Below, one piece after another: positions 2,645 through 42,582 of a stretch of 64,000 nucleotides of DNA. Source of the stretch: Acinetobacter phage ABPH49; sequence record MH533020.1; one strand, given 5' to 3'. Each line of letters begins with the position of its first letter. The stretch's first letter is position 1. Position numbers and translations under genes: made by a program. The notes below the pieces were generated by a model. The model worked only from the letters and a program-made list of their open reading frames with translations, searched no databases and had not been told where the DNA came from.

Positions 2645-4017
2645 TGACCAAGTCAGTAACTGAGATCCTTAACGAGCTGCGTGCAACCTCGTCTAAGAAC
2701 GAAAAAGAGCGAATCATCCGTGAGAATGCTGATCATGACGGCCTGCGTGAAGCATTTCGTGTAGCTTACTCGAAAGAGTTGAACTTCTTTGTGCGTGGCG
2801 TGAAGAACACCTACCAGAACCCGGGCCTGCGCCCTCTTTCGGACAGCATCAACGATCTGGTAACGAACATCGCTGGCCGCCTGTACACCGGCGACGAAGC
2901 CAAGTCGTACATGCAGCAGCTGATCGGCTTGTGTGAAGAGCCTGATACGCTGGTGGCGATCATCAACCGCGATCTGGAGTGTGGTGTACAGACAACCATC
3001 ACCAACAAAGTGTGGAAGGACCTGATCACCGAGCCTCCGTACCAGAGCTACACGCTGTTCACCGAGAAGTTGCTGCGTAAGTTCAACTTCAAGGGCGCTT
3101 TCTCCGATGAGAAAATGGACGGTCTGTATGCAGACATCATGGTATGGCCTGATCAGGTTATCTATCGCTCACGATCTGGTAAAGAGCTGAACTTCCGTGC
3201 CCCACAGGCAGTGGAAGATGCGCTGATGTCGGCGGCCTGCACTCGAGGCCCATTCGTGGCACACGGTGAAGGTCTGGTTATCGATCCGACAGCACGTCAT
3301 GGTGTTATGGAACGTGCAGAGGGTAACGGCTATCTGAACCAAGATCCTGAAGACATCGACCGAAACCGGGTCCGACTTGTTGTCTGGGACATGGTTGACA
3401 TGGACGATTACATCGCCCGCAAGTCGAAAGTCGAATATTACATTCGTCGTGACAACACCAGCTTCTTGGTTGCAGAGGTGGATGTTCTTGAGCATTTCCA
3501 GATGGTTCGTGGTCGTAAGATCAACAGCCTGAAAGAGGCGATCGACCACTTCATCGAAATGCGACAGCAGAAGAAGGAAGGGACGGTACTCAAAGAAGCT
3601 GATATGTTGTGGGGTGACAACAAGACCAAGAAGGGTATCAAACTGAAGAATGAGTTTGACGTCGATCTGGAAGTTGTTGCGACGACACCTCACAAGAAGA
3701 AGGAAGGTTGGGTGGGCGCTCTGATCTGTCAGACACGTGATGGTCTGCTTGAGGTTGGTGCCGGTTCTGGATTGACAGATGCACTGCGTGGCAAGTCACC
3801 AGACTACTTCGTCGGCCAGATCATCACGATCAAGGCGAACGACATCACGAAATCTGAGACGAAAGAACTCCAGTCTCTGTTCCTGCCACGACTCAACTAC
3901 AAGTTTGTTGAGATCCGCCGGGACAAGAGCATCGCCAACAGTCTGGAAGAAGTTATCCAAGCTGCTGACTCACTGCTGGAACTGCTGCGTAAAATTGCGG
4001 AGGATGTGGATAAATGA
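2644..4017 (+). CDS. ATP-dependent DNA ligase (T4/T7 ligase family)
   Basis: 457 aa ORF; adenylation motif I K-M-D-G (SDEKMDGLYADI) and overall ligase-like layout; TAATG coupling to the upstream gene. Confidence 0.85.
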   Translation: MTKSVTEILNELRATSSKNEKERIIRENADHDGLREAFRVAYSKELNFFVRGVKNTYQNPGLRPLSDSINDLVTNIAGRLYTGDEAKSYMQQLIGLCEEPDTLVAIINRDLECGVQTTITNKVWKDLITEPPYQSYTLFTEKLLRKFNFKGAFSDEKMDGLYADIMVWPDQVIYRSRSGKELNFRAPQAVEDALMSAACTRGPFVAHGEGLVIDPTARHGVMERAEGNGYLNQDPEDIDRNRVRLVVWDMVDMDDYIARKSKVEYYIRRDNTSFLVAEVDVLEHFQMVRGRKINSLKEAIDHFIEMRQQKKEGTVLKEADMLWGDNKTKKGIKLKNEFDVDLEVVATTPHKKKEGWVGALICQTRDGLLEVGAGSGLTDALRGKSPDYFVGQIITIKANDITKSETKELQSLFLPRLNYKFVEIRRDKSIANSLEEVIQAADSLLELLRKIAEDVDK

Positions 4018-4475
4018 CAGGTGAAGGTTACTTCCTGCTGATCATGGGCGTACTTATCGCCCTGATTATGGTCATCTGGGCCGATGACACATTCTTCAAG
4101 CCAAAGCGTGAGACTCGCCCACCGGTGGAGAAGATCCTCGATCTGATAAAGTCAGAGGCTGGTTCCATAATCGTCCACAATGGTGACCACCTCGCTCCAG
4201 AGAGTGTCATGAAGAGGCAGTTCGTGGATTATACCATTGAAGACCGGATCACAAAGAAGCTGACATGGATCGGGAGGTTCCCTATGCATGACACCCCGGC
4301 AATCTCTGGGGATTTCAAGTGGTTCAATTCTTCGGAGGCTAAAAGGCTGTATCGGATCGTCAACAAGATTGGCACACGCCAAAGGAAAGAGAAAAACGAG
4401 AGGGCCTCAAAGGAACGCTATGAGCGTCATGAGGAACTTCGTAAGAAGGCCGAAGAGACGTATAAATACCGTTGA
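4014..4475 (+). CDS. hypothetical membrane protein (N-terminal TM helix)
   Basis: ORF track 153 aa; hydrophobic N-terminus LLIMGVLIALIMVIW. Confidence 0.55.
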   Translation: MTGEGYFLLIMGVLIALIMVIWADDTFFKPKRETRPPVEKILDLIKSEAGSIIVHNGDHLAPESVMKRQFVDYTIEDRITKKLTWIGRFPMHDTPAISGDFKWFNSSEAKRLYRIVNKIGTRQRKEKNERASKERYERHEELRKKAEETYKYR

Positions 4476-4501
4476 CATACTTCCCCGGGGTCATGTAATA
4501 T
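4472..4501 (+). promoter_or_regulatory. sigma70-like promoter (TTGACA-18-TAATAT)
   Basis: near-consensus -35/-10 hexamers immediately upstream of RBS GAGAGGAGAAAA and GTG at 4531. Confidence 0.55.
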
Positions 4502-4530
4502 GGCCCCACATTGAACGAGAGGAGAAAATA

Positions 4531-5319
4531 GTGGAATACATCAATTCGATGCGTAAGCGTGAGGATTTCTTGGTGTTGGGACTTGATCGAGTGATCAACT
4601 GGAACCTTACCGCTCGCGGATCGCATCAGTTCAGTGACGAAGATGTGGCTCGCCAAAAGAGCTTTGTTGCTGAGGAGCTGAAGGAAACAATCCAAGCATC
4701 CGTGGATAAAAACCGTAAAGAGATTATCGACGGGATCTGCGACATGTTTGTTGTTGCTACCTACTGGAACTTCCTCAAGGTAATGAAAGAGCAGAACGGC
4801 CGCATCAAACCAGAAGACCGGGTTTCTGGACATTTCGACGATGGTTTCAAAGAAATGGTTATCCGAGATGCGAGAATGGACACTCTGGACTACATGAAGC
4901 CGGGTAGTTATTGGTCAGATGAAGAGCCTGTCGAGCTTCTCACGTATCTTGAGAACTGCCTTAATGATGACCGTTCGCATACGTTTGTTGAGATTGTTGT
5001 CACCCTGATGGAAATTCTCGACTTCAATGCCGAATTGGCTCTGGGTCGGGTCCTTGATTCAAACGACAGCAAGATGCCGACTGTGTACGAACTGACAAAC
5101 GCACTTGAGCAAGGTGGTTCACAGTTTATGGATGAACCACGGTCAGTTGATGAGATGGTTGAATTTGAGGCTGACAACCTTAACAGGTACCACGCCGGTC
5201 GCTACTCTGGTATCACCGGCAACATCAATGTTCAGTTGAATCGGGTAGTTTTCAAAGACTCGAACAACAAGATCATGAAGCCTTGCACATTCGCTGATCC
5301 AGCCCTCAGCGACCTGTAA
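4531..5319 (+). CDS. hypothetical protein (GTG start)
   Basis: the N-terminal 80 aa of track ORF 4288..5319 are Arg-rich junk overlapping the upstream gene; a promoter and strong RBS precede GTG 4531. Confidence 0.45.
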   Translation: MEYINSMRKREDFLVLGLDRVINWNLTARGSHQFSDEDVARQKSFVAEELKETIQASVDKNRKEIIDGICDMFVVATYWNFLKVMKEQNGRIKPEDRVSGHFDDGFKEMVIRDARMDTLDYMKPGSYWSDEEPVELLTYLENCLNDDRSHTFVEIVVTLMEILDFNAELALGRVLDSNDSKMPTVYELTNALEQGGSQFMDEPRSVDEMVEFEADNLNRYHAGRYSGITGNINVQLNRVVFKDSNNKIMKPCTFADPALSDL

Positions 5320-5327
5320 GAAAGTTG

Positions 5328-5357
5328 TTGACATAGACCACACGGATGTGGTTTAAT
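5328..5357 (+). promoter_or_regulatory. sigma70-like promoter (TTGACA-18-TTTAAT)
   Basis: consensus -35 plus an AT-rich -10 in the intergenic gap before the 5382 gene. Confidence 0.45.
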
Positions 5358-5381
5358 GACCACCTTACATCGGGAGGCAGT

Positions 5382-5573
5382 ATGCAGATAAGCACTTACG
5401 ACCTTATCACCAAGATTGATGCGGTGGTAGTTTGGAAAGCACGGCGGCGCTGGGGGAAGTTCAAAACTGAGCGCACCGAGGTTAAGTCCCAAAACGAGCT
5501 GGCGTATGTCATGAAGACAATCCGCGAAGCTGGTGAAGATGCAAAATTCGTTCGCATTGAACATAAAAAGTAA
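5382..5573 (+). CDS. hypothetical small protein
   Basis: RBS GGGAGG 6 nt upstream of ATG; within track ORF 5346..5573. Confidence 0.45.
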   Translation: MQISTYDLITKIDAVVVWKARRRWGKFKTERTEVKSQNELAYVMKTIREAGEDAKFVRIEHKK

Positions 5574-5590
5574 TCGAGAGGAGAACAAAA

Positions 5591-5914
5591 ATGGCTAAGA
5601 AAGACCTGATCGCAACCATCCCTTCAGACCCGGCAGCACGTAAGCGCCTGTCAGACACCATCAACGAAGCTGTGAAGCTGCGTATCGGCATCAAAGACAG
5701 TCAGGAAAGCCTTCGCGACCTCATCAAGGTTGAGAAAGAAGACCGAGACTTCTGTCCGAAATTCCTGAAAACCCTGATCGACGGTGAGTTCGACAAGCAG
5801 TACGCAGCAGAAAAAGCCCGCCGTAATCTGGAAGGCAAGATCGAACAGCTGAACGAACTGGACATCCTGATGGGCCGCAAGGCTGAGCCGGAAGCGGAAG
5901 ACGGCGAGGAGTAA
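5591..5914 (+). CDS. hypothetical protein
   Basis: ORF track 107 aa; RBS GAGAGGAGAA. Confidence 0.55.
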   Translation: MAKKDLIATIPSDPAARKRLSDTINEAVKLRIGIKDSQESLRDLIKVEKEDRDFCPKFLKTLIDGEFDKQYAAEKARRNLEGKIEQLNELDILMGRKAEPEAEDGEE

Positions 5915-6144
5915 TGTACATCCACTTCCCGGGTGACGTTTACGAAAGGCTGAGTGTTCTTGCACAGCGCGATGAAATCTCTATCGCGGCCTTCGTGGCA
6001 AAAGAGATGGCCCGGATCTCGAAGGAGCGTGTTACCATCGAGTACACGGTCAAGGAAGAAAGTTCCGCAGACATGCGGGAACTCCGAAACCAGATCCTTC
6101 GCTCGCTGGAAATAGGAAAGATTGGAGCACCTACGTCGAACTAG
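5914..6144 (+). CDS. ribbon-helix-helix (CopG/Arc-like) DNA-binding protein
   Basis: 76 aa; RHH-like segment VYERLSVLAQRDEISIAAFV. Confidence 0.45.
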   Translation: MYIHFPGDVYERLSVLAQRDEISIAAFVAKEMARISKERVTIEYTVKEESSADMRELRNQILRSLEIGKIGAPTSN

Positions 6145-6165
6145 GACGAAAGGCATCCAAAAACA

Positions 6166-6196
6166 CTCAAAGGTCACCTTCGGGTGGCCTTTTTCA
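6166..6196 (+). terminator. rho-independent terminator (AAAGGTCACCTTCGGGTGGCCTTTTTC)
   Basis: perfect GC-rich hairpin with UUCG-like loop followed by a T-run; identical copy at 11831-11861. Confidence 0.7.
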
Positions 6197-6223
6197 ATAT
6201 GGCCCACAATAGGGGAGATAAAA

Positions 6224-6442
6224 ATGAAAGGTTTTTGCTTAGGTGTTAGCGTAATGGCGCTGCTTGTAAACATCGTACTGTATTTCTCTATGCCTTCCGC
6301 ACACGCATCGCAGACCATGAGCCTTGTCGATGAATACCGGGACGGCAATCAAAAAGTCTGTGTGTACAGCGACGGACGCAACAGCGCCGAAGTCAGAAAG
6401 AGCCTTGCAGGGGCTTGTCCTTCAAAACATATTCGGGGGTAA
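6224..6442 (+). CDS. small secreted/membrane protein (signal-peptide-like N-terminus)
   Basis: RBS GGGGAGATAAAA; hydrophobic N-terminus MKGFCLGVSVMALLVNIVLYFSMPSAHA. Confidence 0.45.
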   Translation: MKGFCLGVSVMALLVNIVLYFSMPSAHASQTMSLVDEYRDGNQKVCVYSDGRNSAEVRKSLAGACPSKHIRG

Positions 6443-6444
6443 AA

Positions 6445-6762
6445 ATGGGTAACGTACTCCACATCCATGCAACTGATCGCGCTCTGGCTACTGGGCTGTT
6501 TGCACCGCAGGACTCTCCATCTGAGAACTGTGAGTACAACATGTACCTGCCGTCAGAATCATGCGACATGAAGATCTGGCTAACCCAGATCGACACAATC
6601 TTCCAGAGGGTATACTGGATCGGCTTCGACTATGTGACCATCCATAGCGGGGATTATTCAAGCTTGGCAATCACTGGGATGAAAATCAACCTTGGAAATC
6701 TTCTTTTCCGAGAAGGTTCCCGGGTGAATGTCCCTAGTGACCTGCTGAGGAAATTCCTGTGA
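6445..6762 (+). CDS. hypothetical protein
   Basis: RBS GGGGGTAAAA then ATG; part of track ORF 6415..6762. Confidence 0.5.
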   Translation: MGNVLHIHATDRALATGLFAPQDSPSENCEYNMYLPSESCDMKIWLTQIDTIFQRVYWIGFDYVTIHSGDYSSLAITGMKINLGNLLFREGSRVNVPSDLLRKFL

Positions 6763-7196
6763 AGATAACAGACAAGCACGTATTGTTCTTTTCATACAAG
6801 GATATGTTCAGCAACCACTTCCGGTCTGAACGCCCATTCTTCTCTCCACGTCATGAGCGTGACGGGGTTAAGTTCTATACCGGCGAGCACTTCATGATGT
6901 ATGAGAAGGCAAAGCTGTTCGGTGATGAAGAGATCTCAAAGAAGATCCTTGAAACATTCCACCCTCAGGAGGCAAAGAAGCTCGGACGGCTGGTGAAGGG
7001 GTTCAACAACGATGTGTGGGAGTATCACCGTGAGGACATAATCTTCTCGATCGTGTATTGCCGGTTGGTATACGACCAACACCTACGCCTGTCGGCGCTC
7101 AATCACCGCATGGATGGCCGATCATTCGTTGAGGCGTCCCCTTGGGACAAGATCTACGGCATCGGTCTGAAGGAGACTGACCCTGCGTGCGGCTGA
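6759..7196 (+). CDS. NADAR (YbiA-like, DUF1768) domain protein, truncated by an apparent frameshift
   Basis: YbiA/NADAR-like motifs (GEHFMMYEKAKLFGD, IYGIGL). The conserved C-terminus DDPSQWKGLNLLGKAWDNATDAL continues in the +1 frame to about 7319. Confidence 0.7.
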   Translation: MKITDKHVLFFSYKDMFSNHFRSERPFFSPRHERDGVKFYTGEHFMMYEKAKLFGDEEISKKILETFHPQEAKKLGRLVKGFNNDVWEYHREDIIFSIVYCRLVYDQHLRLSALNHRMDGRSFVEASPWDKIYGIGLKETDPACG

Positions 7197-7310
7197 CGAT
7201 CCATCCCAATGGAAAGGATTAAACCTCCTCGGCAAGGCGTGGGACAACGCCACAGACGCTCTGGCGGAAAAGTGCGGAGGGTACGAGCTTATGAGTAAGG
7301 AGAGAGCAAC

Positions 7311-7415
7311 ATGGGGCATATAATGCTACTGATGGTTTACGCTGGATGGTTCTCATCGGTGGCGTGGCTAAGTTTTACTGGGAAACTGCATTTTACCTTG
7401 ACAGTTTCCCGTTAG
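7311..7415 (+). CDS. very small hydrophobic protein (34 aa)
   Basis: AAGGAGAGAGCAAC ATG; hydrophobic sequence; below the track cutoff. Confidence 0.3.
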   Translation: MGHIMLLMVYAGWFSSVAWLSFTGKLHFTLTVSR

Positions 7416-7426
7416 CGGTGTATGGT
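7398..7426 (+). promoter_or_regulatory. sigma70-like promoter (TTGACA-17-TATGGT)
   Basis: hexamers upstream of the HNH gene RBS. Confidence 0.45.
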
Positions 7427-7487
7427 ATCATGTTCTTCTTCCTGACACATCTGGTTGCTTTCTACGAAGTGAAAAGGAGGGGTTACA

Positions 7488-8000
7488 TTGTCAGATAAGA
7501 TAAAGCACAAGATCTGTCTTATCCCAAGGACATCGTGGGACCAAAACCTGCGAAGCCACCTGACGAAGACAGGTTGGGACAAGGTAAGGCGAAAGTGCTA
7601 CGCAGAACATGGCTATCATTGTCAGATCTGCGGGAACCAAGGTGGTAACGGTAAAAAACACCCCGTTGAGTGTCATGAAGACTGGACATTCGAAGACGGA
7701 GAGGTTAAGCTGGTAGGCCTTATGTGCCTGTGCCCTCCGTGTCATGAATTCCATCACCCGGGGCTGGCCGAGATGAACGGTAATGTCGAGCGTATGCTCC
7801 GGCAGTTCATGAAGGTGAATAACATCACTCGCGATCAGGCGATCGCATACATGAAGAGTGAGTTCAATATCTGGCGGGAGCGCAGCAAACAAAGCTGGAC
7901 CCTCAATATTGACTACCTCGACGAGTACATGGGTGGTGAGCAGGTTGGTAAGAAAAAGAAACCGGTGCTGAAGGACTACGGCCCGGGCGAGGCATTCTGA
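7488..8000 (+). CDS. HNH endonuclease
   Basis: 170 aa; Cys/His-rich HNH zinc motifs (CYAEHGYHCQICG...HH); TTG start after RBS AAAAGGAGGGG. Confidence 0.65.
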   Translation: MSDKIKHKICLIPRTSWDQNLRSHLTKTGWDKVRRKCYAEHGYHCQICGNQGGNGKKHPVECHEDWTFEDGEVKLVGLMCLCPPCHEFHHPGLAEMNGNVERMLRQFMKVNNITRDQAIAYMKSEFNIWRERSKQSWTLNIDYLDEYMGGEQVGKKKKPVLKDYGPGEAF

Positions 8001-8031
8001 GGAGTGCGAGAGAAGTGAAGAGGGGGTTTTG

Positions 8032-9153
8032 ATGGGGTACCCATACGTTAAGGACCTCGCGGAGATCATGTCTCCAGATTGTGAGATTATTCTCGATCTG
8101 GATCAGACGTGCTTCGTGGCGGCGGCAGGAGCCGAGAAGAGAACGATCAAGGCGATTCACACCAAATCAGGGAAGTTCGAGATCTTCAAGAACAGGACCG
8201 AGTTCTGGGGATCCGGTAAGAAAGCGATCGGTGGTTGGCTGAAGGATTCAAACACCAACCGCGAGATGGCGGCAATGAAGGCTGGAAAGACCTTCAGGCC
8301 ACTTGGTCGGGAAGACTTCACAATCGAGGATATTCAGACGCCGGAGCCGGTTGAGAACTGTCTACACCTGCTGAAGGTGAAGATCAACGCAATCCTCGAG
8401 CACATGCAGTGCGAAAACGGTGTGGGTGTTCTGGGCGGGGAAGGAAACTTCCGCCTTGTTCTTCCAACGCCGGAGATTTACAAGGGCAACCGCGAAGACA
8501 CTCTACGACCGCTTCTGTTGGCGGATACCCGCGAGTACGTCAAGAAGAAATACGGCGCGGTTGTGATCGACGGGATCGAGGCTGATGACTACCTGACCAT
8601 GAAACAGTGGGAGGGGTGGCAGCACTACCAGCGGACTGGCAAGTTCAACAAGATCGTTGCCTCGTTCGACAAGGATCAGGTGCAGTGCCCGGGGCTTATC
8701 TTCAACACGATGCGTGAAACGGATAAAGGCCGCGAGTCTGGGTGGAAACACCCGCAGCCAATGCTTATCGACGATTCGATGGGTGAAGTGTGGATGGAGA
8801 AGGGTAAGGTTAAGGGCTGGGGTAAGAAATTCTTCGGCTACCAGATGCTGTTTGGCGACACGTCGGACAACGTCAAACCCTACCAGAACTTCGACATCAA
8901 GTTTGGGGAAGGTGCCGCCTTCAAGGTGATCTCCCCTTGCGACACGGAAGCCGACATGTGGGCTGCGATCGTAGACACTTACAAGGGCTGGTTCCCTGAT
9001 GGTGTTGAGTTTGTGGACCACTCTGGAGTTGAGCGTAAGTTTACTGCCGGGCAGTGGGCGAGCGTAATCTTCCAGCTGGTGTACATGAAAAGGTGGGAAG
9101 GTGACGAAACTTCCTTGACCACAAAACTGAGGGAGGTTGGGCTGATCAAATGA
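8032..9153 (+). CDS. 5'-3' exonuclease / flap endonuclease (T4 RNase H / FEN family)
   Basis: GIEADDYL and LFGDTSDN motifs typical of 5' nucleases; RBS AGAGGGGG. Confidence 0.75.
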   Translation: MGYPYVKDLAEIMSPDCEIILDLDQTCFVAAAGAEKRTIKAIHTKSGKFEIFKNRTEFWGSGKKAIGGWLKDSNTNREMAAMKAGKTFRPLGREDFTIEDIQTPEPVENCLHLLKVKINAILEHMQCENGVGVLGGEGNFRLVLPTPEIYKGNREDTLRPLLLADTREYVKKKYGAVVIDGIEADDYLTMKQWEGWQHYQRTGKFNKIVASFDKDQVQCPGLIFNTMRETDKGRESGWKHPQPMLIDDSMGEVWMEKGKVKGWGKKFFGYQMLFGDTSDNVKPYQNFDIKFGEGAAFKVISPCDTEADMWAAIVDTYKGWFPDGVEFVDHSGVERKFTAGQWASVIFQLVYMKRWEGDETSLTTKLREVGLIK

Positions 9154-9482
9154 TCTTTGAGAATGCTGATGAGAAAATCATCGAACTCGTAGAGGCGGAG
9201 GATTCTCTTCGCCACCACCTCGCCCAGTACAAGGGTGCAACAATGTTCTACGATGGACCGTGGACCATTGTTGACGACCCTTGGTCGATCCAGTGGTTGA
9301 ACGAAAAGGAAGAGTTGTGCCAAGTGCAGATCATCGCACCACCGATTGAGGGTGAAAAGTTGAGCATGTTCGTTTGCACATTCGATGCACGAACTGTTCT
9401 GAACCTTGTCCTCATGAAGGAAGAGTACATCAGTGTCGAACACGAATTGGAGAAAGAAAAGAGTGAGAATCCTGACGATTGA
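9150..9482 (+). CDS. hypothetical protein
   Basis: ORF track 110 aa; ATGA coupling. Confidence 0.5.
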   Translation: MIFENADEKIIELVEAEDSLRHHLAQYKGATMFYDGPWTIVDDPWSIQWLNEKEELCQVQIIAPPIEGEKLSMFVCTFDARTVLNLVLMKEEYISVEHELEKEKSENPDD

Positions 9483-10044
9483 CCAGAGTATGGCGTCATG
9501 CGCCTACGTGGTGTTGGAAGACGAAAAGCCGATCTTCAAAGAGGTGTTGCACACAACCGGGGCTGCTGATCCAAAGGCTTGGCAGATCAGGTTCGATAAC
9601 CCGGTTGAGCAAATGGATTACATCTCCAAGAAGATCCTCGGGGTAGCCAACAGCTTCGAAGTCGAGCACGTCGTTATGGAATCGCTGAGTTTCGGATCTG
9701 CGGGTAACGCAACCCGCGATCTGGCCGGGCTGTTCTTCTGCATCCAGCTCACTCTGTTCCGAGATGGACGGTATGGGATGGATCAGCTGCATACGATCGC
9801 GCCGACATCGGCCAAATCTTGGGCATGGAACTTCTTGCCAGAAGACATGCAGTCCGTCCCTAATGAAAAGGGAACCAAGATGAACAAGCGAAAGATGGGT
9901 AAGGATGAAATGGTGATTGTTGCCAAATCTCTGTACCCGGGTTTCCTTGACGGCTACAACAAAACAGGTAAGAATGGTGGGTTGACTGACCTCGCGGATG
10001 CGATCTTGATTGGTCGTACTTGGCGGGCTAAGCGGGGGCTGTAA
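9433..10044 (+). CDS. RuvC-like Holliday junction resolvase
   Basis: ILTIDQSMASCAYVVL resembles the RuvC N-terminal catalytic motif; C-terminal DLADAILIG; start ambiguous (9433 or a downstream GTG/ATG). Confidence 0.55.
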   Translation: MSNTNWRKKRVRILTIDQSMASCAYVVLEDEKPIFKEVLHTTGAADPKAWQIRFDNPVEQMDYISKKILGVANSFEVEHVVMESLSFGSAGNATRDLAGLFFCIQLTLFRDGRYGMDQLHTIAPTSAKSWAWNFLPEDMQSVPNEKGTKMNKRKMGKDEMVIVAKSLYPGFLDGYNKTGKNGGLTDLADAILIGRTWRAKRGL

Positions 10045-24228: not shown

Positions 24229-24386
24229 ATCCAGACTTCCTCGCGGCAGTTAGCTGTTACCCGGACGTGTGGATCTCTTATATCGGTACAGAATCTTGGG
24301 ACGATAGCATTGAAGTTATCGTGACTTCAAAAAATGAAAAGTCGGTGTCTGAGCTGGCAGAAAGATTCGGAGGTAAGAATGGCTGA
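24174..24386 (+). CDS. hypothetical protein
   Basis: ORF track 70 aa; overlaps the upstream gene by 55 nt in another frame, so uncertain. Confidence 0.35.
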   Translation: MAGPKRDFDKVFEFETAVNPDFLAAVSCYPDVWISYIGTESWDDSIEVIVTSKNEKSVSELAERFGGKNG

Positions 24387-25640
24387 TATCAAAAATATCT
24401 GGTTGGTGGCGCTGTCCGCGACATGCTGATGGGCAAGGAACCAAAAGACCGCGATTACGTGGTGGTTGGGTCTACCCATGAGGAGATGATCTCCCTTGGC
24501 TTCGGTATGCCATTTGGTGCGGCATTCCCTGTCTATCACCACCCTGAAACCAAGGAAGAGTATGCACTGGCACGTACAGAGCGCTCAACCGGTCCGGGTT
24601 ACCACGACTTCGAGACTTTGTTCTCGCCTGACGTAACTCTGGAACAGGACCTGCTTCGCCGCGACCTGACGATCAATGCGATCGCATACGACGAAGAGAC
24701 TGGTGAGTTCATCGATCCGCATGGCGGTGTTGAAGACATCAAAAATAAACAGCTGCGTCCGGTAAACCCAAAGGCATTCCTTGAGGATCCTCTGCGAATC
24801 TACCGACTGGCTCGTCTGTTTGCCCGGTACGGCGGTGAGTTCCAAATCGGTTGGCGCACCATGTGGCTGGTAACTCAGGCTGTCAAAGCCGGTGGCCTGA
24901 ACCACCTGCCAAAGGAAAGGAAATTCGCCGAGATCGAGAAGTGCTTCAAAGACGACTCTCGCAGCAACAAACCTTCCATGATGATCACCTTCTTGGCAGA
25001 TATCGGTGAACTGCCGGAGATTGCTGCTCTGGAAGGTGTCCCACAACCGGCGGAGCACCATCCTGAGGGTGACGCTTTCGTCCACACTATGTTGGTGATG
25101 GATGCCGCGTTCAATCTGGGGGCGAGCGCACAGGAGCTGTTCGCAGCCATGCTGCACGACGTGGGAAAGGCCGTGGTTTACGAAAAGTACGGCAAGCTTC
25201 ACGGTCACGAAGAGGCGGGTGTTCCGGTAGTGGAGCAAGTGTGCGACCGGTTTGGTGTACCACTCAGCTGGAGAAAGCTGGCGGTTGTGTGCACAGAGAA
25301 TCATGGCCGGGTCCACAAAATCCGCGACATGCGCCCAAAAAAGGTTCTGGCACTCCTTGAACGATTGAAAGCAGAGCAATCCTTTGATACGATGCTGTCA
25401 CTGTGTCTGGTTTGTCAGGCCGACGCATGGGGACGTGGCCCGGATCGTTATGGAAAGATGTACCTGCAAGGGGTGTACCTGATGAATGTTGCAGAAGCTC
25501 TGGCACTGGCACGGAAAGATCTGAAGATCAAAAACCGTGAAATTGCCTTGCAATGCAAAGGTAATCCGGGTAAGATTGCTGAAAGAGTTCGGGCAGAGAA
25601 ACTGTCCGTGGTAAAATCCGCGATACGGGAGATGAGTTGA
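24379..25640 (+). CDS. cca: CCA-adding tRNA nucleotidyltransferase with C-terminal HD domain; apparent 1-nt frameshift near 24390-24398
   Basis: MADIKNI in one frame, then YLVGGAVRDMLMG..DRDYVVVGST..EEYALARTER..HD domain in the next; colinear with E. coli Cca; the junction is an A5 run. Confidence 0.8.
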
Positions 25641-25996
25641 TGGAAGAGGCAAAACGTAACCAACCGGCAGAGACGTTCTTGGACTTCATGTTGTCAAACC
25701 CCCATGACTTTGTGGTCAAGAAGGAAGACATGAAATCTCACTACACCATGACTGTCCGTCACAAATGGACATCCGCCTCAGTTGTGGTCGTGTCTGGGCG
25801 TGGTGACGTATACACCATCCGCCCGGTGGAGGAGAAAGAGGGTGTTATCGGCTACAGTCATCCAGATACCGCGAAAAACATCTGGAATCAGGGAAGCCGA
25901 ATCATCGAAGACGAGAAAATCTTCGGAGAATATTCCCGTGACGTGAGGACTTCGGCGGCACTGGGGGAGTTCTATGACAAAAAAGAAGAAGGATAA
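25637..25996 (+). CDS. hypothetical protein
   Basis: ORF track 119 aa; ATGA coupling. Confidence 0.5.
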   Translation: MMEEAKRNQPAETFLDFMLSNPHDFVVKKEDMKSHYTMTVRHKWTSASVVVVSGRGDVYTIRPVEEKEGVIGYSHPDTAKNIWNQGSRIIEDEKIFGEYSRDVRTSAALGEFYDKKEEG

Positions 25997-26198
25997 GTTC
26001 CGCTTCGAAGGGCATGTCTGGTATGCAGACAAGAACTGTGGTAAACAAGTCTGCGCCGCGTGCGGGCTTGTTGCCCTTAACAATGAGGCCAGCGACTGGT
26101 GCATCCGTAAAGGTTGCAATTACAAAGATGATCCTGCTTACGAGTTGGCGATGGTCCGGCTTACAGAAGGGAAGAGCTTTATAAGGAGGAAACGATGA
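25974..26198 (+). CDS. small Cys-rich (Zn-binding) protein
   Basis: C..C...CAACG...C pattern; 74 aa. Confidence 0.45.
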   Translation: MTKKKKDKFRFEGHVWYADKNCGKQVCAACGLVALNNEASDWCIRKGCNYKDDPAYELAMVRLTEGKSFIRRKR

Positions 26199-26668
26199 AA
26201 TTAAGAGCTTATGCGCTGGTAAACCAATACATCGCCGGGATCCATGCCGGTATTCAGACTGCTCACGCGCTGATGGAATTGTCCGCGAAGTATGATCTTC
26301 GAGACTGCTTTGACGGAGATGATGCTGCAATGTTTTACGACTGGCGTCGGGAAGACAAAACGCTCATCGTCCTCAATGGTGGGTACCAGCAGCGTATCTA
26401 CGAGGCGATGGAGCTTTGGTCCAAGAGCGTATTCCCATATGCCCACTTCTGTGAAGAGCAGGATGCGTTAAACGGTGCATTGACGGCTGCGGTAATCATC
26501 CTGCCGGAGTATGTCTACGATCGAGCTAACCACATCACTTCTGAGGATGGTTCGTCGCTGTACCACATGCCGGATGGTCTCGAGACAGGAAATGACGTTG
26601 TCGAACTCAACTACATCGAGCGTCAAATCTCTGAATCTTTGGGCAAATTCCGACTGAAGGGGGAGTAA
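26195..26668 (+). CDS. PTH2-like (peptidyl-tRNA hydrolase 2 fold) protein, tentative
   Basis: LVNQYIAGIHAGIQTAHA and ...TLIVLNG....LTAAVIILPE loosely match the PTH2 pattern; weak call. Confidence 0.35.
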   Translation: MKLRAYALVNQYIAGIHAGIQTAHALMELSAKYDLRDCFDGDDAAMFYDWRREDKTLIVLNGGYQQRIYEAMELWSKSVFPYAHFCEEQDALNGALTAAVIILPEYVYDRANHITSEDGSSLYHMPDGLETGNDVVELNYIERQISESLGKFRLKGE

Positions 26669-36810: not shown

Positions 36811-37146
36811 TTAGCTCCCATTGTCTTTAAGTCCTTGCAGCCCGGGAAGGGCCAGTCTACGGTTAAGCTCCTGTATTTCGCCCTCATACTGCTCGAAGAG
36901 GTCTTCGTACATTCTCATTGCCGGAGAGTCTACACCATGTTGGTCGGCAATGCCACCGCTTTCGTATTGTTTTCTTCGGATCTCCATTTGGGCATTGAGC
37001 AAGGTTCCGACGTTGGCGTCCCACATCGCCCGGGTGTAAATTATGTTGTTGTATTTCCTCACCTTTTCTTTCTCTGCCTTCAAAAGCAGGATTACCAGAA
37101 CAACGACAAGGGTGATGATGATCAACGCTCCAATTAATTCAGCCAT
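36811..37146 (-). CDS. membrane protein
   Basis: ORF track 111 aa; N-terminal TM LIGALIIITLVVVLVILLL. Confidence 0.5.
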   Translation of the reverse strand: MAELIGALIIITLVVVLVILLLKAEKEKVRKYNNIIYTRAMWDANVGTLLNAQMEIRRKQYESGGIADQHGVDSPAMRMYEDLFEQYEGEIQELNRRLALPGLQGLKDNGS

Positions 37147-37321
37147 GAAACCCCCACTTCACCGGCATGATGCTGACATGACGATGACTGCGTTTTGGGA
37201 TGGTTTTCAGGTATTCTTCCCTAGCCATCTTAGCCTCTTCCTCGGTAGAATGAGCCGATACCGGCATATCTCGACAGCGGAACGATGTAGAGTCTCTCAT
37301 CACTACGTATATGTTTTTCAT
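37139..37321 (-). CDS. small protein, paralog of the adjacent 37318..37500 gene
   Basis: internal ATG (MKNIYVVMRD...EEEAKMAREEYLK...VKWGF); the shared pattern with the neighbour implies tandem duplication. Confidence 0.45.
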   Translation of the reverse strand: MKNIYVVMRDSTSFRCRDMPVSAHSTEEEAKMAREEYLKTIPKRSHRHVSIMPVKWGFHG

Positions 37322-37500
37322 CCGATCCCCCACTTCACTTCTCGAACATGGACCTTGATGTTTCTCCATTTATCGAGGTCTTTCAGGTACTCTTCCTTTG
37401 CAGTTTCGGCACCTTCCGGCGTCTTGTGGGCAGACAGAAGCTGATCTCCGTACAGGCCAGTCAACGACGTCAAAACAACCACGTGTATGTTTTTACTCAT
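37318..37500 (-). CDS. small protein, paralog of 37139..37321
   Basis: MSKNIHVVVL...AETAKEEYLK...VKWGI; perfect RBS GTAAGGAGAAAAC. Confidence 0.5.
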   Translation of the reverse strand: MSKNIHVVVLTSLTGLYGDQLLSAHKTPEGAETAKEEYLKDLDKWRNIKVHVREVKWGIG

Positions 37501-37509
37501 GTTTTCTCC

Positions 37510-37620
37510 TTACAGTGTCGACAGCAATTTTTCAAACCCAACCACCCCGGCAATGATGAGGAGGACAACTACCCATGCACCCATGAAGCGGAGGATGGTT
37601 GGTGGACTATCGTTCATCAT
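37510..37620 (-). CDS. small TM protein (36-37 aa)
   Basis: RBS AGGAGAT; hydrophobic MGAWVVVLLIIAGVVGF; below the track cutoff. Confidence 0.4.
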   Translation of the reverse strand: MMNDSPPTILRFMGAWVVVLLIIAGVVGFEKLLSTL

Positions 37621-37874
37621 CTTTTATCTCCTGTCCACTCGCCTTCGTGGTGTTTCACGGCAAACGTGTAATCCGGTCCGCCGAGATAACTCTCCCAGTG
37701 CAGGTCGGCGCATCCTGCCGCCCATTCTTGCTCAACAAGGTTGTACCCGCAAAGGGCTACAATTGCCAGCTTACCGGCGGCGATGGCCCCTGCCTCGGTA
37801 TCCGCGCCGCAGATGGTCCTAACCCAGCCACCGGCACAGCAGAAGTCTTTACAGCGTACTTGGACAACCCACAT
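37617..37874 (-). CDS. Cys-rich protein
   Basis: ORF track 85 aa; RBS TGGAGGA. Confidence 0.5.
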   Translation of the reverse strand: MWVVQVRCKDFCCAGGWVRTICGADTEAGAIAAGKLAIVALCGYNLVEQEWAAGCADLHWESYLGGPDYTFAVKHHEGEWTGDKR

Positions 37875-38056
37875 TATCGATCCTCCAGAGAAATGAGAAT
37901 GATCTTTCCTACTTTCAGGAGGTACTGGAGATGAAACTGCTCATTTATGTACCCTTCGTCGTAGGCATAGGCCTCATCAGGATCTCGAGTAGTCCCTTTA
38001 TCAGGCGAAAGGTAATACTCTCCAGTAGCTACATGAAAAATAAGGAACTTTTTCAT
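37874..38056 (-). CDS. small protein, paralog of 38833..39045
   Basis: internal ATG (MKKFLIFHVATGEYYLSPDK...YAYDE) with RBS AAAAGGAGAAGG. Confidence 0.45.
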   Translation of the reverse strand: MKKFLIFHVATGEYYLSPDKGTTRDPDEAYAYDEGYINEQFHLQYLLKVGKIILISLEDR

Positions 38057-38352
38057 TATCGACCTTCTCCTTTTACGAGATGCTTCCAAGAGATGCGGAT
38101 GCTTACGATCTCTGTGAGGTGGTAATCATCACAGCTGTACGTCACTTCATACCCCAGAGACTTCAGCAGCTGACCTGCGGTCAACATTTCGTGGTTCAGA
38201 CTCGCCCCTACAATTTTGCGAGTCAGTTTGGTCTGGGTTTGTGTTGCCGGGACGTTGCGGATATGCTCCCATACTGCTTCTGGAAGAATAACTTCCTTTT
38301 GCAGCGCCTCTGTTGTCCGCTTCGCCATCTCTTCTGCTGTTGGTAAATTCAT
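38056..38352 (-). CDS. hypothetical protein
   Basis: internal ATG (MNLPTAEEMAKR...) with RBS AAAGGGGGAT. Confidence 0.45.
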   Translation of the reverse strand: MNLPTAEEMAKRTTEALQKEVILPEAVWEHIRNVPATQTQTKLTRKIVGASLNHEMLTAGQLLKSLGYEVTYSCDDYHLTEIVSIRISWKHLVKGEGR

Positions 38353-38377
38353 TTTATCCCCCTTTGTTTTCAACATG

Positions 38378-38674
38378 TTAGTAGAATGAGTCTTCGTCTC
38401 TTTGCCAGAGATACTCCCAGCGCTCCTCCGCGTCTCGCATCCGAGACTCAAACCACTGAAGTTCGCGCTTCAGCTTGTCGTACTCCTCCTTTTTCTCCCA
38501 AGAGGCGTACTCGGTGCACTCGCTCTCGAAGTTACCTGAATCCGTGAATGAGGTTTGGTCCTCATTCCCACAGGAACACCGGTAGGATACACGAAGCATC
38601 CCACCGCTGTCAACAACTTCGCTGCCTTTTATTACTTGGTGGTTGCTCGAGATCCGGTCGCAGTTGTTACACAT
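38378..38674 (-). CDS. Zn-ribbon protein
   Basis: MCNNC...C.CG pattern; start uncertain (track ORF extends to 38770 with a GTG). Confidence 0.4.
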   Translation of the reverse strand: MCNNCDRISSNHQVIKGSEVVDSGGMLRVSYRCSCGNEDQTSFTDSGNFESECTEYASWEKKEEYDKLKRELQWFESRMRDAEERWEYLWQRDEDSFY

Positions 38675-40520: not shown

Positions 40521-40857
40521 AGGTCAACAGCCGAAAAGCTGTGATCGTCTAAAACAGCCTGTGCGCTGTTTTAAGGCGTTTTCATGCTAAGGTGATAAAT
40601 GGTATGGCTTACAGCCCGAAAGCCTCGCAGTGGTCCGCCTGTGAAGCCGTTTAGATGATAATGGTTCTCAACAAGTTGGTGGTAGGATTTTTAGGGTGAT
40701 TGGTGGGTTTTGGGGGTTGTATTGATCATTGGTTGGTGATATTCTGTTAGATCGGTGTTGGTTGTGGGTGATACCATTCCGCCAGCGGCTAAGGCCGGTT
40801 TCCAACTGGTGGCAATGCCTCGAGGCTCGCCGCTGTTCGCCCTGGGTAATCTTGTGA

Positions 40858-40890
40858 CGAAAACAAGAAACCCGGCGCTGTGGCCGGGCT
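40858..40890 (-). terminator. rho-independent terminator (CCCGGCCACAGCGCCGGG + TTTCTTGTTTTCG on the - strand)
   Basis: GC hairpin plus T-rich tail a short distance downstream of the stop of the 40968..41318 gene. Confidence 0.55.
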
Positions 40891-40967
40891 TGTGGTGGGT
40901 GTTACTGTGGGTTACTGCTGGGTGTGAAACAACCATTTAGCCGCTTCATTGCGGGCCGCGACCTCTT

Positions 40968-41318
40968 CTAGAACTCTCCCCAGCTGATCCGGCTGATATG
41001 GCGGTTTTCCATTGCTGCCTGTACTGACAGATCAAAGGGGGAGAAACCATAGCGCACTATGCGGATCTCTTCAAAACCGGTGTAATACTCATTGCCGAAC
41101 TTCTTGGCTGAGAAGACCGCCTCGATCGTGTACTCCCGGTTGCCGTCGTTCACCTCTTCAATGAGGACAGTCTCACGCATTGCCCAATTCTGACAATCGC
41201 GGATAACTTGGCAAGCTTCAGGGCGGAGGGTGCCAAAATTCACGGCGTGAGCCAGCGCAGCAGGGCCAAAGGTGCGGGCAATAGCGATAACATCGGCGCG
41301 GGTTTCGATAGTGAACAT
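40968..41318 (-). CDS. hypothetical protein
   Basis: internal ATG (MFTIETRAD...) with RBS AAAAAGGAATCAC; promoter TTTACA-17-TACTAT and 5'-UTR hairpin GGGAGGCAATACCGCCTCCC upstream. Confidence 0.5.
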   Translation of the reverse strand: MFTIETRADVIAIARTFGPAALAHAVNFGTLRPEACQVIRDCQNWAMRETVLIEEVNDGNREYTIEAVFSAKKFGNEYYTGFEEIRIVRYGFSPFDLSVQAAMENRHISRISWGEF

Positions 41319-41340
41319 GGTGTGATTCCTTTTTGTGGGT

Positions 41341-41395
41341 GGAGGCGGTATTGCCTCCCGATGTGTTAATAGTAGGTCATCTGGCGCAGGATGTA
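41341..41395 (-). promoter_or_regulatory. promoter (TTTACA-17-TACTAT) plus 5'-UTR hairpin GGGAGGC-AATAC-CGCCTCCC
   Basis: the same promoter-hairpin-RBS layout as the repeated cassettes further right. Confidence 0.45.
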
Positions 41396-41415
41396 AAGCG
41401 GATAAGTGAAATAAA

Positions 41416-41445
41416 TGCAAAAAACCCCGGCACTACGGCCGGAGT
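41416..41445 (-). terminator. rho-independent terminator (CCGGCCGTAGTGCCGGGG + TTTTTTG on the - strand)
   Basis: hairpin plus T6 after the stop of the 41433..41705 gene. Confidence 0.55.
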
Positions 41446-41705
41446 TCGTTCGTGATTTCGTTGGCTGCGGCGATCTGCCGTAGGCGTGCCAATCTGTCAA
41501 GGTAGGTGCTATAAGCCTGCATTAGGGCGGCTGGCTCTTCCCGGTCATACTGCAAAGACACCCGGCGATCGTCTTCCATGCCAACGATCCAGAAATAGGC
41601 GTGATCGCTTTCTTCCACCGCAACCAGTTGTAACCAGTTAGGGGACATCCCGTCATCGTCAACAGGGGTTACGATACACTCTTCAAGCTTGATTGATTTG
41701 GTCAT
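41433..41705 (-). CDS. hypothetical protein
   Basis: ORF track 90 aa. Confidence 0.5.
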   Translation of the reverse strand: MTKSIKLEECIVTPVDDDGMSPNWLQLVAVEESDHAYFWIVGMEDDRRVSLQYDREEPAALMQAYSTYLDRLARLRQIAAANEITNELRP

Positions 41706-42019
41706 GATAAAGCCTCATTGGTTGGAAAATTTACTACCTGACACCGAACTTTATCAGGATAGGACCTTCCTGTTATAAAGTCAATAAAAATCGCATCTGT
41801 AAATTCAATGCTTACTGAATCATCACACCAGTTAACTATGTAATTTCTGTTTTCGAGTTGTTTGCGGGTGATGGGTTTTGCACCTGCGGCTTTCATAGAA
41901 GACCCAAGGATTTTATGGACTATCCACACATGCGCCGATCCCCGGTAAGATTTTTCTCCCTCGCTCAACAAATGGTCAAGGGCCTTTTCTGGACTGGTAA
42001 AGTTATAAGACATGTGCAT
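41702..42019 (-). CDS. hypothetical protein
   Basis: internal ATG (MHMSYNFTSPEK...) of track ORF 41702..42145. Confidence 0.45.
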   Translation of the reverse strand: MHMSYNFTSPEKALDHLLSEGEKSYRGSAHVWIVHKILGSSMKAAGAKPITRKQLENRNYIVNWCDDSVSIEFTDAIFIDFITGRSYPDKVRCQVVNFPTNEALS

Positions 42020-42059
42020 GATTAGGGTCTCATATAGGCCCCTTTCGGGGCCGGGTTGG

Positions 42060-42326
42060 TTACTTGTACAGTTTGACAAAGTCGCGGAAAATGTCGTTCC
42101 AGTCAGGACCGTTTTGCAGCTGGTAAGGCTTGCCGTGGTGGTCATAGTTCATGGCGCTAACTTCACCAGTGGCAAAGAAGCCGCTGTCATATGCTGCTTT
42201 CTCGGCCTTGCGGATCACGGCGTTGATCCGGTTTCCGTTCGGGTTGCCGTTGCTCTCAGCGTTCAATTGCTTGGCGGTAACTTCCAGATTTTTCAGGGCT
42301 GTTCTGATGAATTTAACTTTGTTCAC
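42060..42326 (-). CDS. hypothetical protein
   Basis: ORF track 88 aa. Confidence 0.5.
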   Translation of the reverse strand: MNKVKFIRTALKNLEVTAKQLNAESNGNPNGNRINAVIRKAEKAAYDSGFFATGEVSAMNYDHHGKPYQLQNGPDWNDIFRDFVKLYK

Positions 42327-42423
42327 TTTACATTACCTTTCGGGGTGGCTGGCGGTGTGCCTTGCCTCTGGAAACAATAATAGGACCTTTCGGCCCTGAA
42401 GTCTTTAGCAAAAAGTGCTATTT

Positions 42424-42582
42424 TTATCGTTTACCGCTTGCACGGTTATTCAGCCAATCCCGAACCATGCGGATCGCCTCATAATTGTAACCTTCAGCCT
42501 GCATTCTGGCCTCTAACTGCATTTTGGTTAGGTTGAGCCTACGGATCCGCCGGGCGTACTGATAAGCCTGATCTTTTGTCAT
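42424..42582 (-). CDS. hypothetical small protein (52 aa)
   Basis: ATGA coupling; below the track cutoff. Confidence 0.35.
   Translation of the reverse strand: MTKDQAYQYARRIRRLNLTKMQLEARMQAEGYNYEAIRMVRDWLNNRASGKR

Follow-up and report, generated by a model that had tools for sequence, protein, structure and literature searches.

An apparent AdfN-like orphan NADAR gene interrupted by a TGCG duplication in the deposited genome of Acinetobacter phage ABPH49

Results

The interrupted NADAR gene

Acinetobacter phage ABPH49 is a singleton Vequintavirinae phage with a genome of 149.9 kb (PMC8878043). This study concerns a gene for a NADAR domain protein in a stretch of 64,000 nucleotides of its deposited sequence (MH533020.1), which is called the window below and in which all positions are counted. 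An earlier note, made from the sequence alone, had assigned the span 6759-7320 to a phage-encoded NADAR domain protein. The sole substantial open reading frame (ORF) in this span (6759..7196, plus strand) begins with GTG, runs for 145 codons and ends at a TGA stop (7194-7196). Its product matches the Pfam NADAR profile PF08719 with an E-value of 8.9e-26 and 91.5 bits, compared with a gathering score of 35.1, and the assignment to NADAR is thereby borne out. The match covers profile positions 11-137 of 163; position 11 of the profile corresponds to residue 15, and the NADAR domain begins at residue 1 of the protein. The rest of the domain is encoded in the +1 frame, which continues to 7320 and is closed by a TAA stop (7321-7323). 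This out-of-frame C-terminal remnant, ADDPSQWKGLNLLGKAWDNATDALAEKCGGYELMSKERATWGI (7192..7323, plus strand, frame-2 translation), carries the invariant W-x-G-x-N-L-L-G motif and the last two helices. No single frame holds the complete domain: the frame is broken at codon 144, and profile positions 138-161 lie in the +1 frame. When the two pieces are joined, the match to PF08719 improves to an E-value of 1.4e-32 and 113.6 bits over profile positions 11-161. The span 6759-7320 is the exact coding span of this frameshift-split gene, and the split itself had only been hinted at by the words "repaired ORF".

The frame is interrupted by a 4-bp tandem duplication, TGCG|TGCG (7184..7191, plus strand), which was identified from a DNA alignment and an indel list and which shifts the frame by +1. 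Two relatives were found by megablast (n=2), namely, the Serratia phages vB_SmaM-Kashira, with 98.5% identity at this locus, and vB_SmaM-ChuuTotoro, with 81%. Both are Vequintavirinae, and each carries an intact, syntenic NADAR gene of 561 nt that encodes 186 amino acids. In a three-way alignment, the window reads TGCGTGCG at 7184-7191, with the TGCG of 7184-7187 repeated at 7188-7191, whereas both Kashira and ChuuTotoro hold one TGCG. A premature stop follows the duplication within five codons, and the product consists of native residues 1-143 plus the aberrant Cys144 and Gly145; 43 native residues are lost. Strong purifying selection acts on the intact gene in this lineage: comparison of the NADAR genes of Kashira and ChuuTotoro gives a ratio of nonsynonymous to synonymous substitution rates (dN/dS) of 0.047, at saturated dS. 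Programmed frameshifting was considered as a way of reading through the interruption and was rejected: it would need a +1 slip at TGC-GGC-TGA, no slippery motif is present, and the gene of the relatives is plainly in frame.

The translation start context (6747..6762, plus strand), read from the sequence and the alignment, comprises a Shine-Dalgarno-like GAGG (6747-6750) located 8 nt before the GTG. The GTG and the stop codon of the preceding frame overlap (GTGA, 6759-6762), and the start codon of ChuuTotoro at the same position is ATG. The 145-residue product is identical to AXN57782.1 of ABPH49, labelled "hypothetical protein" in GenBank, and AXN57782.1 clusters with the 186-residue Kashira protein URC22701.1.

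Fold and active site

The AlphaFold2 (AF2) model of the repaired protein, based on 84 homologues, has a predicted local distance difference test score of 97.1 and a predicted template modelling (TM) score of 0.91. Foldseek returned only two significant neighbours in the PDB, 8BAU (TM 0.75, E 8.5e-9) and YbiA 2B3W (TM 0.69), whose alpha-helical core the model shares. The first of these, which is also the sole PDB sequence match (E 6e-12), is the complex of the Phytophthora nicotianae NADAR (PnNADAR) with ADP-ribose (ADPr). Residue roles in ADPr contact and catalysis have been described by Schuller et al. (PMC11543638). They were transferred to the window protein through the 8BAU alignment, with an offset of +2 between the chain index and the numbering of the paper.

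Three residues are central to the site. Glu43 (codon 6885..6887, plus strand) corresponds to E43 of PnNADAR and E88 of the Escherichia coli C7 NADAR, which coordinates the distal ribose, and occupies an invariant column. Lys50 (6906..6908, plus strand) corresponds to PnNADAR K50 and E. coli C7 NADAR K95, which coordinates the phosphate and the adenine and is essential for hydrolysis. Glu125 (7131..7133, plus strand) corresponds to PnNADAR E125 at the catalytic position. Among the remaining positions, PnNADAR K75, G78, R79, W89, R93 and D130 are matched by K73, G76, R77, W87, R91 and D130 of the window protein, and Y84, D86 and W133 by F82, N84 and Y133. In the alignment of 84 homologues, E43, K50, G76, W87, E125 and D130 are invariant. 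Position 125 is Glu in the general "NADAR" and YbiA families, Asp in the DarG1 NADARs and His in the T4-type phage NADARs (PMC11543638, PMC12945103); the window protein has Glu. In Pfam, the 145-residue ORF matches PF08719 only and not PF08010, and the window protein thus shows neither the PF08010 match nor the catalytic His of the T4 type.

Relationships

According to Johannesman et al. (Nat Commun 2025, PMC11825919), the NADAR gp30.3 of phage T4 ("AdfN") clears phage DNA of ADP-ribose and is both necessary and sufficient to overcome DarTG1. Our comparison with validated AdfN proteins took in T4 AdfN and AdfN-Bas60 and left AdfN-Bas32 aside; AdfN-Bas60 was identified through the BASEL table as bas60_0111 (QXV83846.1) of Escherichia phage PaulScherrer (GenBank MZ501100). 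Aligned over 170 residues, the repaired protein and AdfN-Bas60 share 39% identity (E 1e-31). In a phmmer search from the window protein, AdfN-Bas60 scored 88.7 bits, E. coli YbiA 16.3 bits and T4 AdfN approximately 0. In a neighbour-joining (NJ) tree, which is crude, lacks support values and was rooted on YbiA, the window protein falls within a clade formed by phage NADARs of the Vequintavirinae type. This clade groups with a broad set of stand-alone bacterial and phage NADARs, AdfN-Bas60 included, and YbiA, the outgroup, is the most distant. Homologues occur in 718 phage records, mostly of large myoviruses (Herelleviridae and rV5-, phi92- and phAPEC8-like phages), and the PHROGs family is phrog_1017, with its function listed as unknown. 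A partial NADAR match of 56 residues in phage EP57 (OR544956.1, 14525-17692) was considered as a decayed copy and rejected; this is apparently a heavily frameshifted record of low quality with many coding sequences of 30-40 amino acids.

The relationship to YbiA bears on the role in riboflavin-intermediate or NAD salvage metabolism that the earlier note had named as the alternative to counter-defence. The protein would then be a YbiA-like housekeeping N-glycosidase that clears reactive intermediates of riboflavin biosynthesis, or an enzyme of NAD salvage. It does match the NCBIfam model TIGR02464, "riboflavin biosynthesis intermediates N-glycosidase", with 106 bits against a cut-off of 73.7; its GenBank phage homologues are variously named "YbiA-like N-glycosidase" or "GTP cyclohydrolase II", and Glu at position 125, which it has, defines the YbiA-type motif. 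However, TIGR02464 and PF08719 model the fold of the whole superfamily and do not discriminate between functions. The similarity to YbiA is weak (16 bits, compared with 89 bits to AdfN-Bas60), a PDB sequence search at E<0.01 found PnNADAR but not YbiA, and no riboflavin or NAD-salvage genes adjoin the NADAR gene. In addition, a single phage NADAR lies near the YbiA group according to Johannesman et al. (PMC11825919). What speaks for this alternative is naming, through the TIGR02464 match, and we consider it highly improbable.

Consequence of the truncation

E43, K50 and E125 lie upstream of the break and are retained in the 145-residue product. The 43 lost residues hold 4 of the 13 columns that are invariant in the family (G152, N154, L156 and G157; 84 homologues), the nearly invariant W150 and L155, and the core helices 155-170 and 174-183 of the AF2 model. 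In RB69 AdfN, a 1-nt insertion removes the last 15 residues together with the C-terminal helix, and RB69 is sensitive to DarTG1 (PMC11825919). The matching truncation of T4 AdfN reduces its activity (PMC11825919). The window product does not retain the C-terminal helix on which these experiments bear; the helices lie beyond the premature stop. Because the milder truncation of 15 residues inactivates RB69 AdfN, loss of function is to be expected here, and the 145-residue allele is probably dead as written, unless the sequence is wrong at the indel. In T4, adfN is dispensable on plain K-12 and essential in the presence of DarTG1 (transposon screen, bioRxiv 2025.11.20.689424). Because adfN is dispensable without DarTG1, a null allele would be tolerated.

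Origin of the duplication

Positions 1-36927 of the window are 99.3% identical to Kashira (37 kb). Within this interval, five further frame-breaking differences from Kashira were found, and all of them are 1-nt deletions in short homopolymer runs: T5 to T4 at ~7373, A6 to A5 at ~11996, TT to T at ~18225, A6 to A5 at ~24391 and AA to A at ~34157. The genes broken in this way encode the 62-residue membrane protein beside the NADAR gene, the deoxynucleoside monophosphate (dNMP) kinase, the ribonucleotide reductase beta subunit (nrdB), a 420-residue PolyA_pol/HD nucleotidyltransferase resembling CCA-adding enzymes, and a minus-strand hypothetical protein. Five broken conserved genes between genomes that are 99% identical point to homopolymer miscalling in the deposited assembly.

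These deletions raise the alternative that the TGCG duplication is itself a sequencing or assembly error and that the real phage makes a normal AdfN-like NADAR of 186 residues. The strong purifying selection on the intact gene argues in the same direction, as does the out-of-frame remnant, which is 100% identical to Kashira: downstream of the indel there are 0 differences in 136 nt, compared with 9 in 425 nt upstream. Because the remnant is without differences from Kashira, the duplication is either very recent or unreal. However, the other errors are 1-nt homopolymer deletions, whereas the NADAR lesion is a 4-nt insertion, and null alleles of adfN arise naturally, as in RB69, and cost nothing without DarTG1. 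The insertion lies in sequence that is not a homopolymer and makes a perfect tandem repeat, which is the signature of replication slippage. We slightly favour a real mutation by slippage over a sequencing error, and the chance that the duplication is an artefact appears to be a little short of even. Neither viral_contigs nor metagenome_contigs contained oligomers of 26 to 30 nt across TGCGTGCG, but the intact 22-mer was likewise absent from viral_contigs, and these absences carry no information.

Genomic context

The NADAR gene stands in a co-directional array. It is preceded by a DNA ligase gene (~2.7 kb upstream), a gene for a double-stranded DNA-binding protein and small ORFs, and it is followed by genes for the 62-residue membrane protein, an HNH endonuclease, RNase H, an exonuclease, DNA polymerase, dNMP kinase, ThyX and ribonucleotide reductase. 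The HNH endonuclease (7488-8000; 170 residues, phrog_5200, E 2e-68) is encoded two genes after NADAR and is conserved in Kashira and ChuuTotoro. In the flanking ORFs, no match to an ADP-ribosyltransferase (ART), DarT, a toxin, Macro, SLOG or Nudix was found with Pfam, PHROGs or PADLOC, and the NADAR gene is an orphan with no adjoining DarT or ART. The earlier description of a free-standing phage NADAR gene fits these findings: the gene is phage-borne, in a sequence 99.3% identical to Kashira, and the region is an array for replication and nucleotide metabolism (ligase, RNase H, polymerase, dNMP kinase, ThyX and ribonucleotide reductase). A scan of 3500-9500 for promoter and terminator consensus sequences returned sites that were no more numerous than in shuffled sequence, and the place of the gene in the co-directional replication array is all that bears on the timing of its expression.

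Several observations concern the surroundings of the gene. In T4, gene 30.3 (4308-4766 in the T4 stretch examined) lies ~1.1 kb downstream of the ligase gene 30, and in the window the NADAR gene lies ~2.7 kb from the ligase gene (~2650-4020). The placement of NADAR genes of unrelated clades near a ligase gene may be recurrent, or it may be a coincidence. ChuuTotoro has an extra gene of 195 nt, annotated as "host protease inhibitor protein" (CHUUTOTORO_00850, 6315-6509 of its stretch), directly upstream of NADAR. Neither the window nor Kashira has this gene, which suggests a slot for accessory anti-host genes upstream of NADAR.

Other observations lie farther from the gene. The counterpart of KASHIRA_01580 (~24380-25640 in the window; 24993-26255 in the Kashira stretch), which is annotated as "DNA methylase" in Kashira, has a PolyA_pol head (E 4.5e-22) and HD domains; judged by these domains, it appears to be an enzyme like a CCA-adding or tRNA nucleotidyltransferase and not a methylase. 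No tRNA gene was found in the 64-kb window. Kashira lacks a counterpart of two segments, 36927-38397 (~1.5 kb) and 40639-42546 (~1.9 kb), which belong to the minus-strand array of small hypothetical genes and hold only small unannotated ORFs. Finally, ABPH49 is recorded from Acinetobacter, yet the window is 99.3% identical over 37 kb to a phage of Serratia marcescens (ON287374.1). Unless the host given for one of the two phages is questionable, the host range spans different orders.

Discussion

We consider it likely that the locus is an AdfN-like orphan NADAR gene, disrupted in the window; enzymatic activity, the DarT1 mark as the target and loss of function in the window copy are what we infer. 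The anti-DarTG1 role of orphan phage NADARs was already published in 2025. These proteins (AdfN) strip guanine-linked ADP-ribose off phage DNA and neutralise DarTG1 (PMC11825919). AdfN-Bas32 and AdfN-Bas60, which are unrelated phage NADARs, neutralise DarT1 alone and rescue three phages that are sensitive to DarTG1 (PMC11825919). DarTG2, which acts on thymidine, is countered by none of the three phage AdfN proteins tested (PMC11825919). Bas60-62 are placed in Vequintavirinae (PMC11825919), and the locus described here would be a further AdfN-like orphan NADAR, from the Serratia/Acinetobacter lineage of the same subfamily. The suggestion of an anti-DarTG factor in the earlier note stands with respect to its mechanism, which is established for the class and includes a tested homologue of 39% identity. 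It has to be narrowed to DarT1 and guanine, and the copy in the window is truncated.

According to this reading, the intact 186-residue form of Kashira and ChuuTotoro would be produced alongside the proteins of replication and nucleotide metabolism. It would bind ADP-ribose through E43, K50, K73, R77, W87, R91, E125 and D130 and, acting on phage DNA, would hydrolyse the N-glycosidic bond that links ADP-ribose to guanine N2. The marks set by a host DarT1-type ADP-ribosyltransferase would thus be erased, and replication would proceed. In the window, the 4-bp duplication at codon 143/144 would yield the 145-residue product, in which the catalytic residues are kept and the WxGxNLLG motif and the last two core helices are gone. 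Such a product would be expected to be misfolded or inactive, and the phage as sequenced would be sensitive to DarTG1, like RB69.

Several points weigh against this reading. To judge by the five homopolymer deletions, the record is prone to errors, of which the NADAR indel may be another; no sequence decay is seen 3′ of the indel, where no nucleotide in the 136 compared with Kashira differs. Residual activity is conceivable, since the break lies downstream of every catalytic residue. With respect to function, the identity to the tested Bas60 protein is 39%, and the two proteins fall in different sub-clades of the NJ tree. Furthermore, all NADARs, including YbiA, hydrolyse ADP-ribosylated guanine (G-ADPr) in vitro, whereas only some rescue cells from DarT1 in vivo (Cihlova et al., PMC11125620), and in vitro hydrolysis is therefore common to the family in a way that in vivo rescue is not.

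An alternative reading concerns the substrate. The NADAR could degrade small ADPr derivatives, such as immune signals resembling cyclic ADPr or toxic ADPr products, or it could reverse the ADP-ribosylation of RNA or cytidine. Iyer et al. (2022) argued from context that diffusible ADPr derivatives are the targets of most NADAR, Macro and Nudix domains in phages (PMC9503650), and Glu-type members of the "NADAR family" also remove ADP-ribose from cytidine (C-ADPr) and G-ADPr from RNA in vitro (PMC12945103). The window protein is the Glu form (E125), and its top structural match belongs to the Glu-type family. However, the only phage NADARs tested in vivo, which represent three clades and include the PF08719/Glu-type Bas60, act against DarTG1 by removing G-ADPr from DNA. 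No SLOG, Macro or Nudix partner adjoins the NADAR gene, and the literature cited contains no demonstration of NADAR activity on cyclic ADPr signals. We regard this alternative as quite improbable. It is a possibility that the Glu-type Vequintavirinae clade acts on another mark (C-ADPr or ADP-ribosylated RNA) that is set by an ART of Serratia or Acinetobacter.

Returning to the reading of a disrupted AdfN-like gene, the strongest form of the claim is that the TGCG duplication is real and that ABPH49 joins RB69 as the second phage known to be naturally adfN-null, the two being of unrelated families and their NADARs of unrelated clades; we think this rather unlikely. If it were true, phages grown on hosts without a DarT1-type defence would seem to lose adfN repeatedly, and ABPH49 would be predicted to be restricted by DarTG1, unlike Kashira. 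Provided that the indel is genuine, Kashira with its intact gene and ABPH49 with its truncated one would form a natural near-isogenic pair in which the effect of NADAR on host range could be followed on DarTG1 strains. On the practical side, the deposited genome carries several frame errors, and AXN57782.1 is a truncated NADAR.

Comparison with known systems

PnNADAR (8BAU) and the window protein are aligned position for position in their ADPr-binding residues, including Glu125, at 27% identity. PnNADAR, SCO5665 and the sigma70-linked NADAR of E. coli are eukaryotic or bacterial cellular proteins, and PnNADAR has the extensions of the YbiA fold. DarG1 (E. coli C7 and G. lovleyi) would share with the class of the window protein the same fold and the same chemistry, the hydrolysis of guanine-N2-ADP-ribose. 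However, DarG1 has an N-terminal beta1-beta2-alpha1 extension, a catalytic Asp and an adjoining darT1, none of which is present at this locus.

Among the phage proteins, AdfN-T4 (gp30.3) resembles the window gene in being an orphan phage NADAR encoded downstream of a phage DNA ligase gene, and the T4 protein acts against DarTG1. In contrast to the window protein, with which it has no detectable pairwise similarity, it belongs to PF08010 (Phage_30_3) and has a catalytic His. AdfN-T4 also needs a T-even-specific factor for its full activity (PMC11825919), whereas AdfN-Bas60 neutralises DarT1 without other phage factors. Like the window protein, AdfN-Bas60 is a stand-alone phage NADAR of ~185 residues that matches PF08719, and it comes from a large rV5/phi92-like myovirus. 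It shares with the repaired window protein the N-terminal MKITDK-V-FFS, the catalytic E/K/E, FVEASP-D-IYGI and WKG-NLLGK. The two differ in sub-clade and in surroundings: the Bas60 gene follows genes for an FtsH-like protease and a 467-residue hypothetical protein, whereas the window gene lies between small ORFs and the HNH endonuclease gene in the ligase-RNase H array, and its copy is frameshifted.

The closest precedent is AdfN-RB69 (gene 30.3 pseudogene), a natural frameshift allele of adfN in which the C-terminal helix is lost and counter-defence is abolished. AdfN-RB69 is a T4-type protein of PF08010 with the His variant, and its 1-nt insertion costs 15 residues, whereas the window protein is a Glu-type member of PF08719 in which a 4-nt duplication costs 43 residues, the NLLG motif among them.

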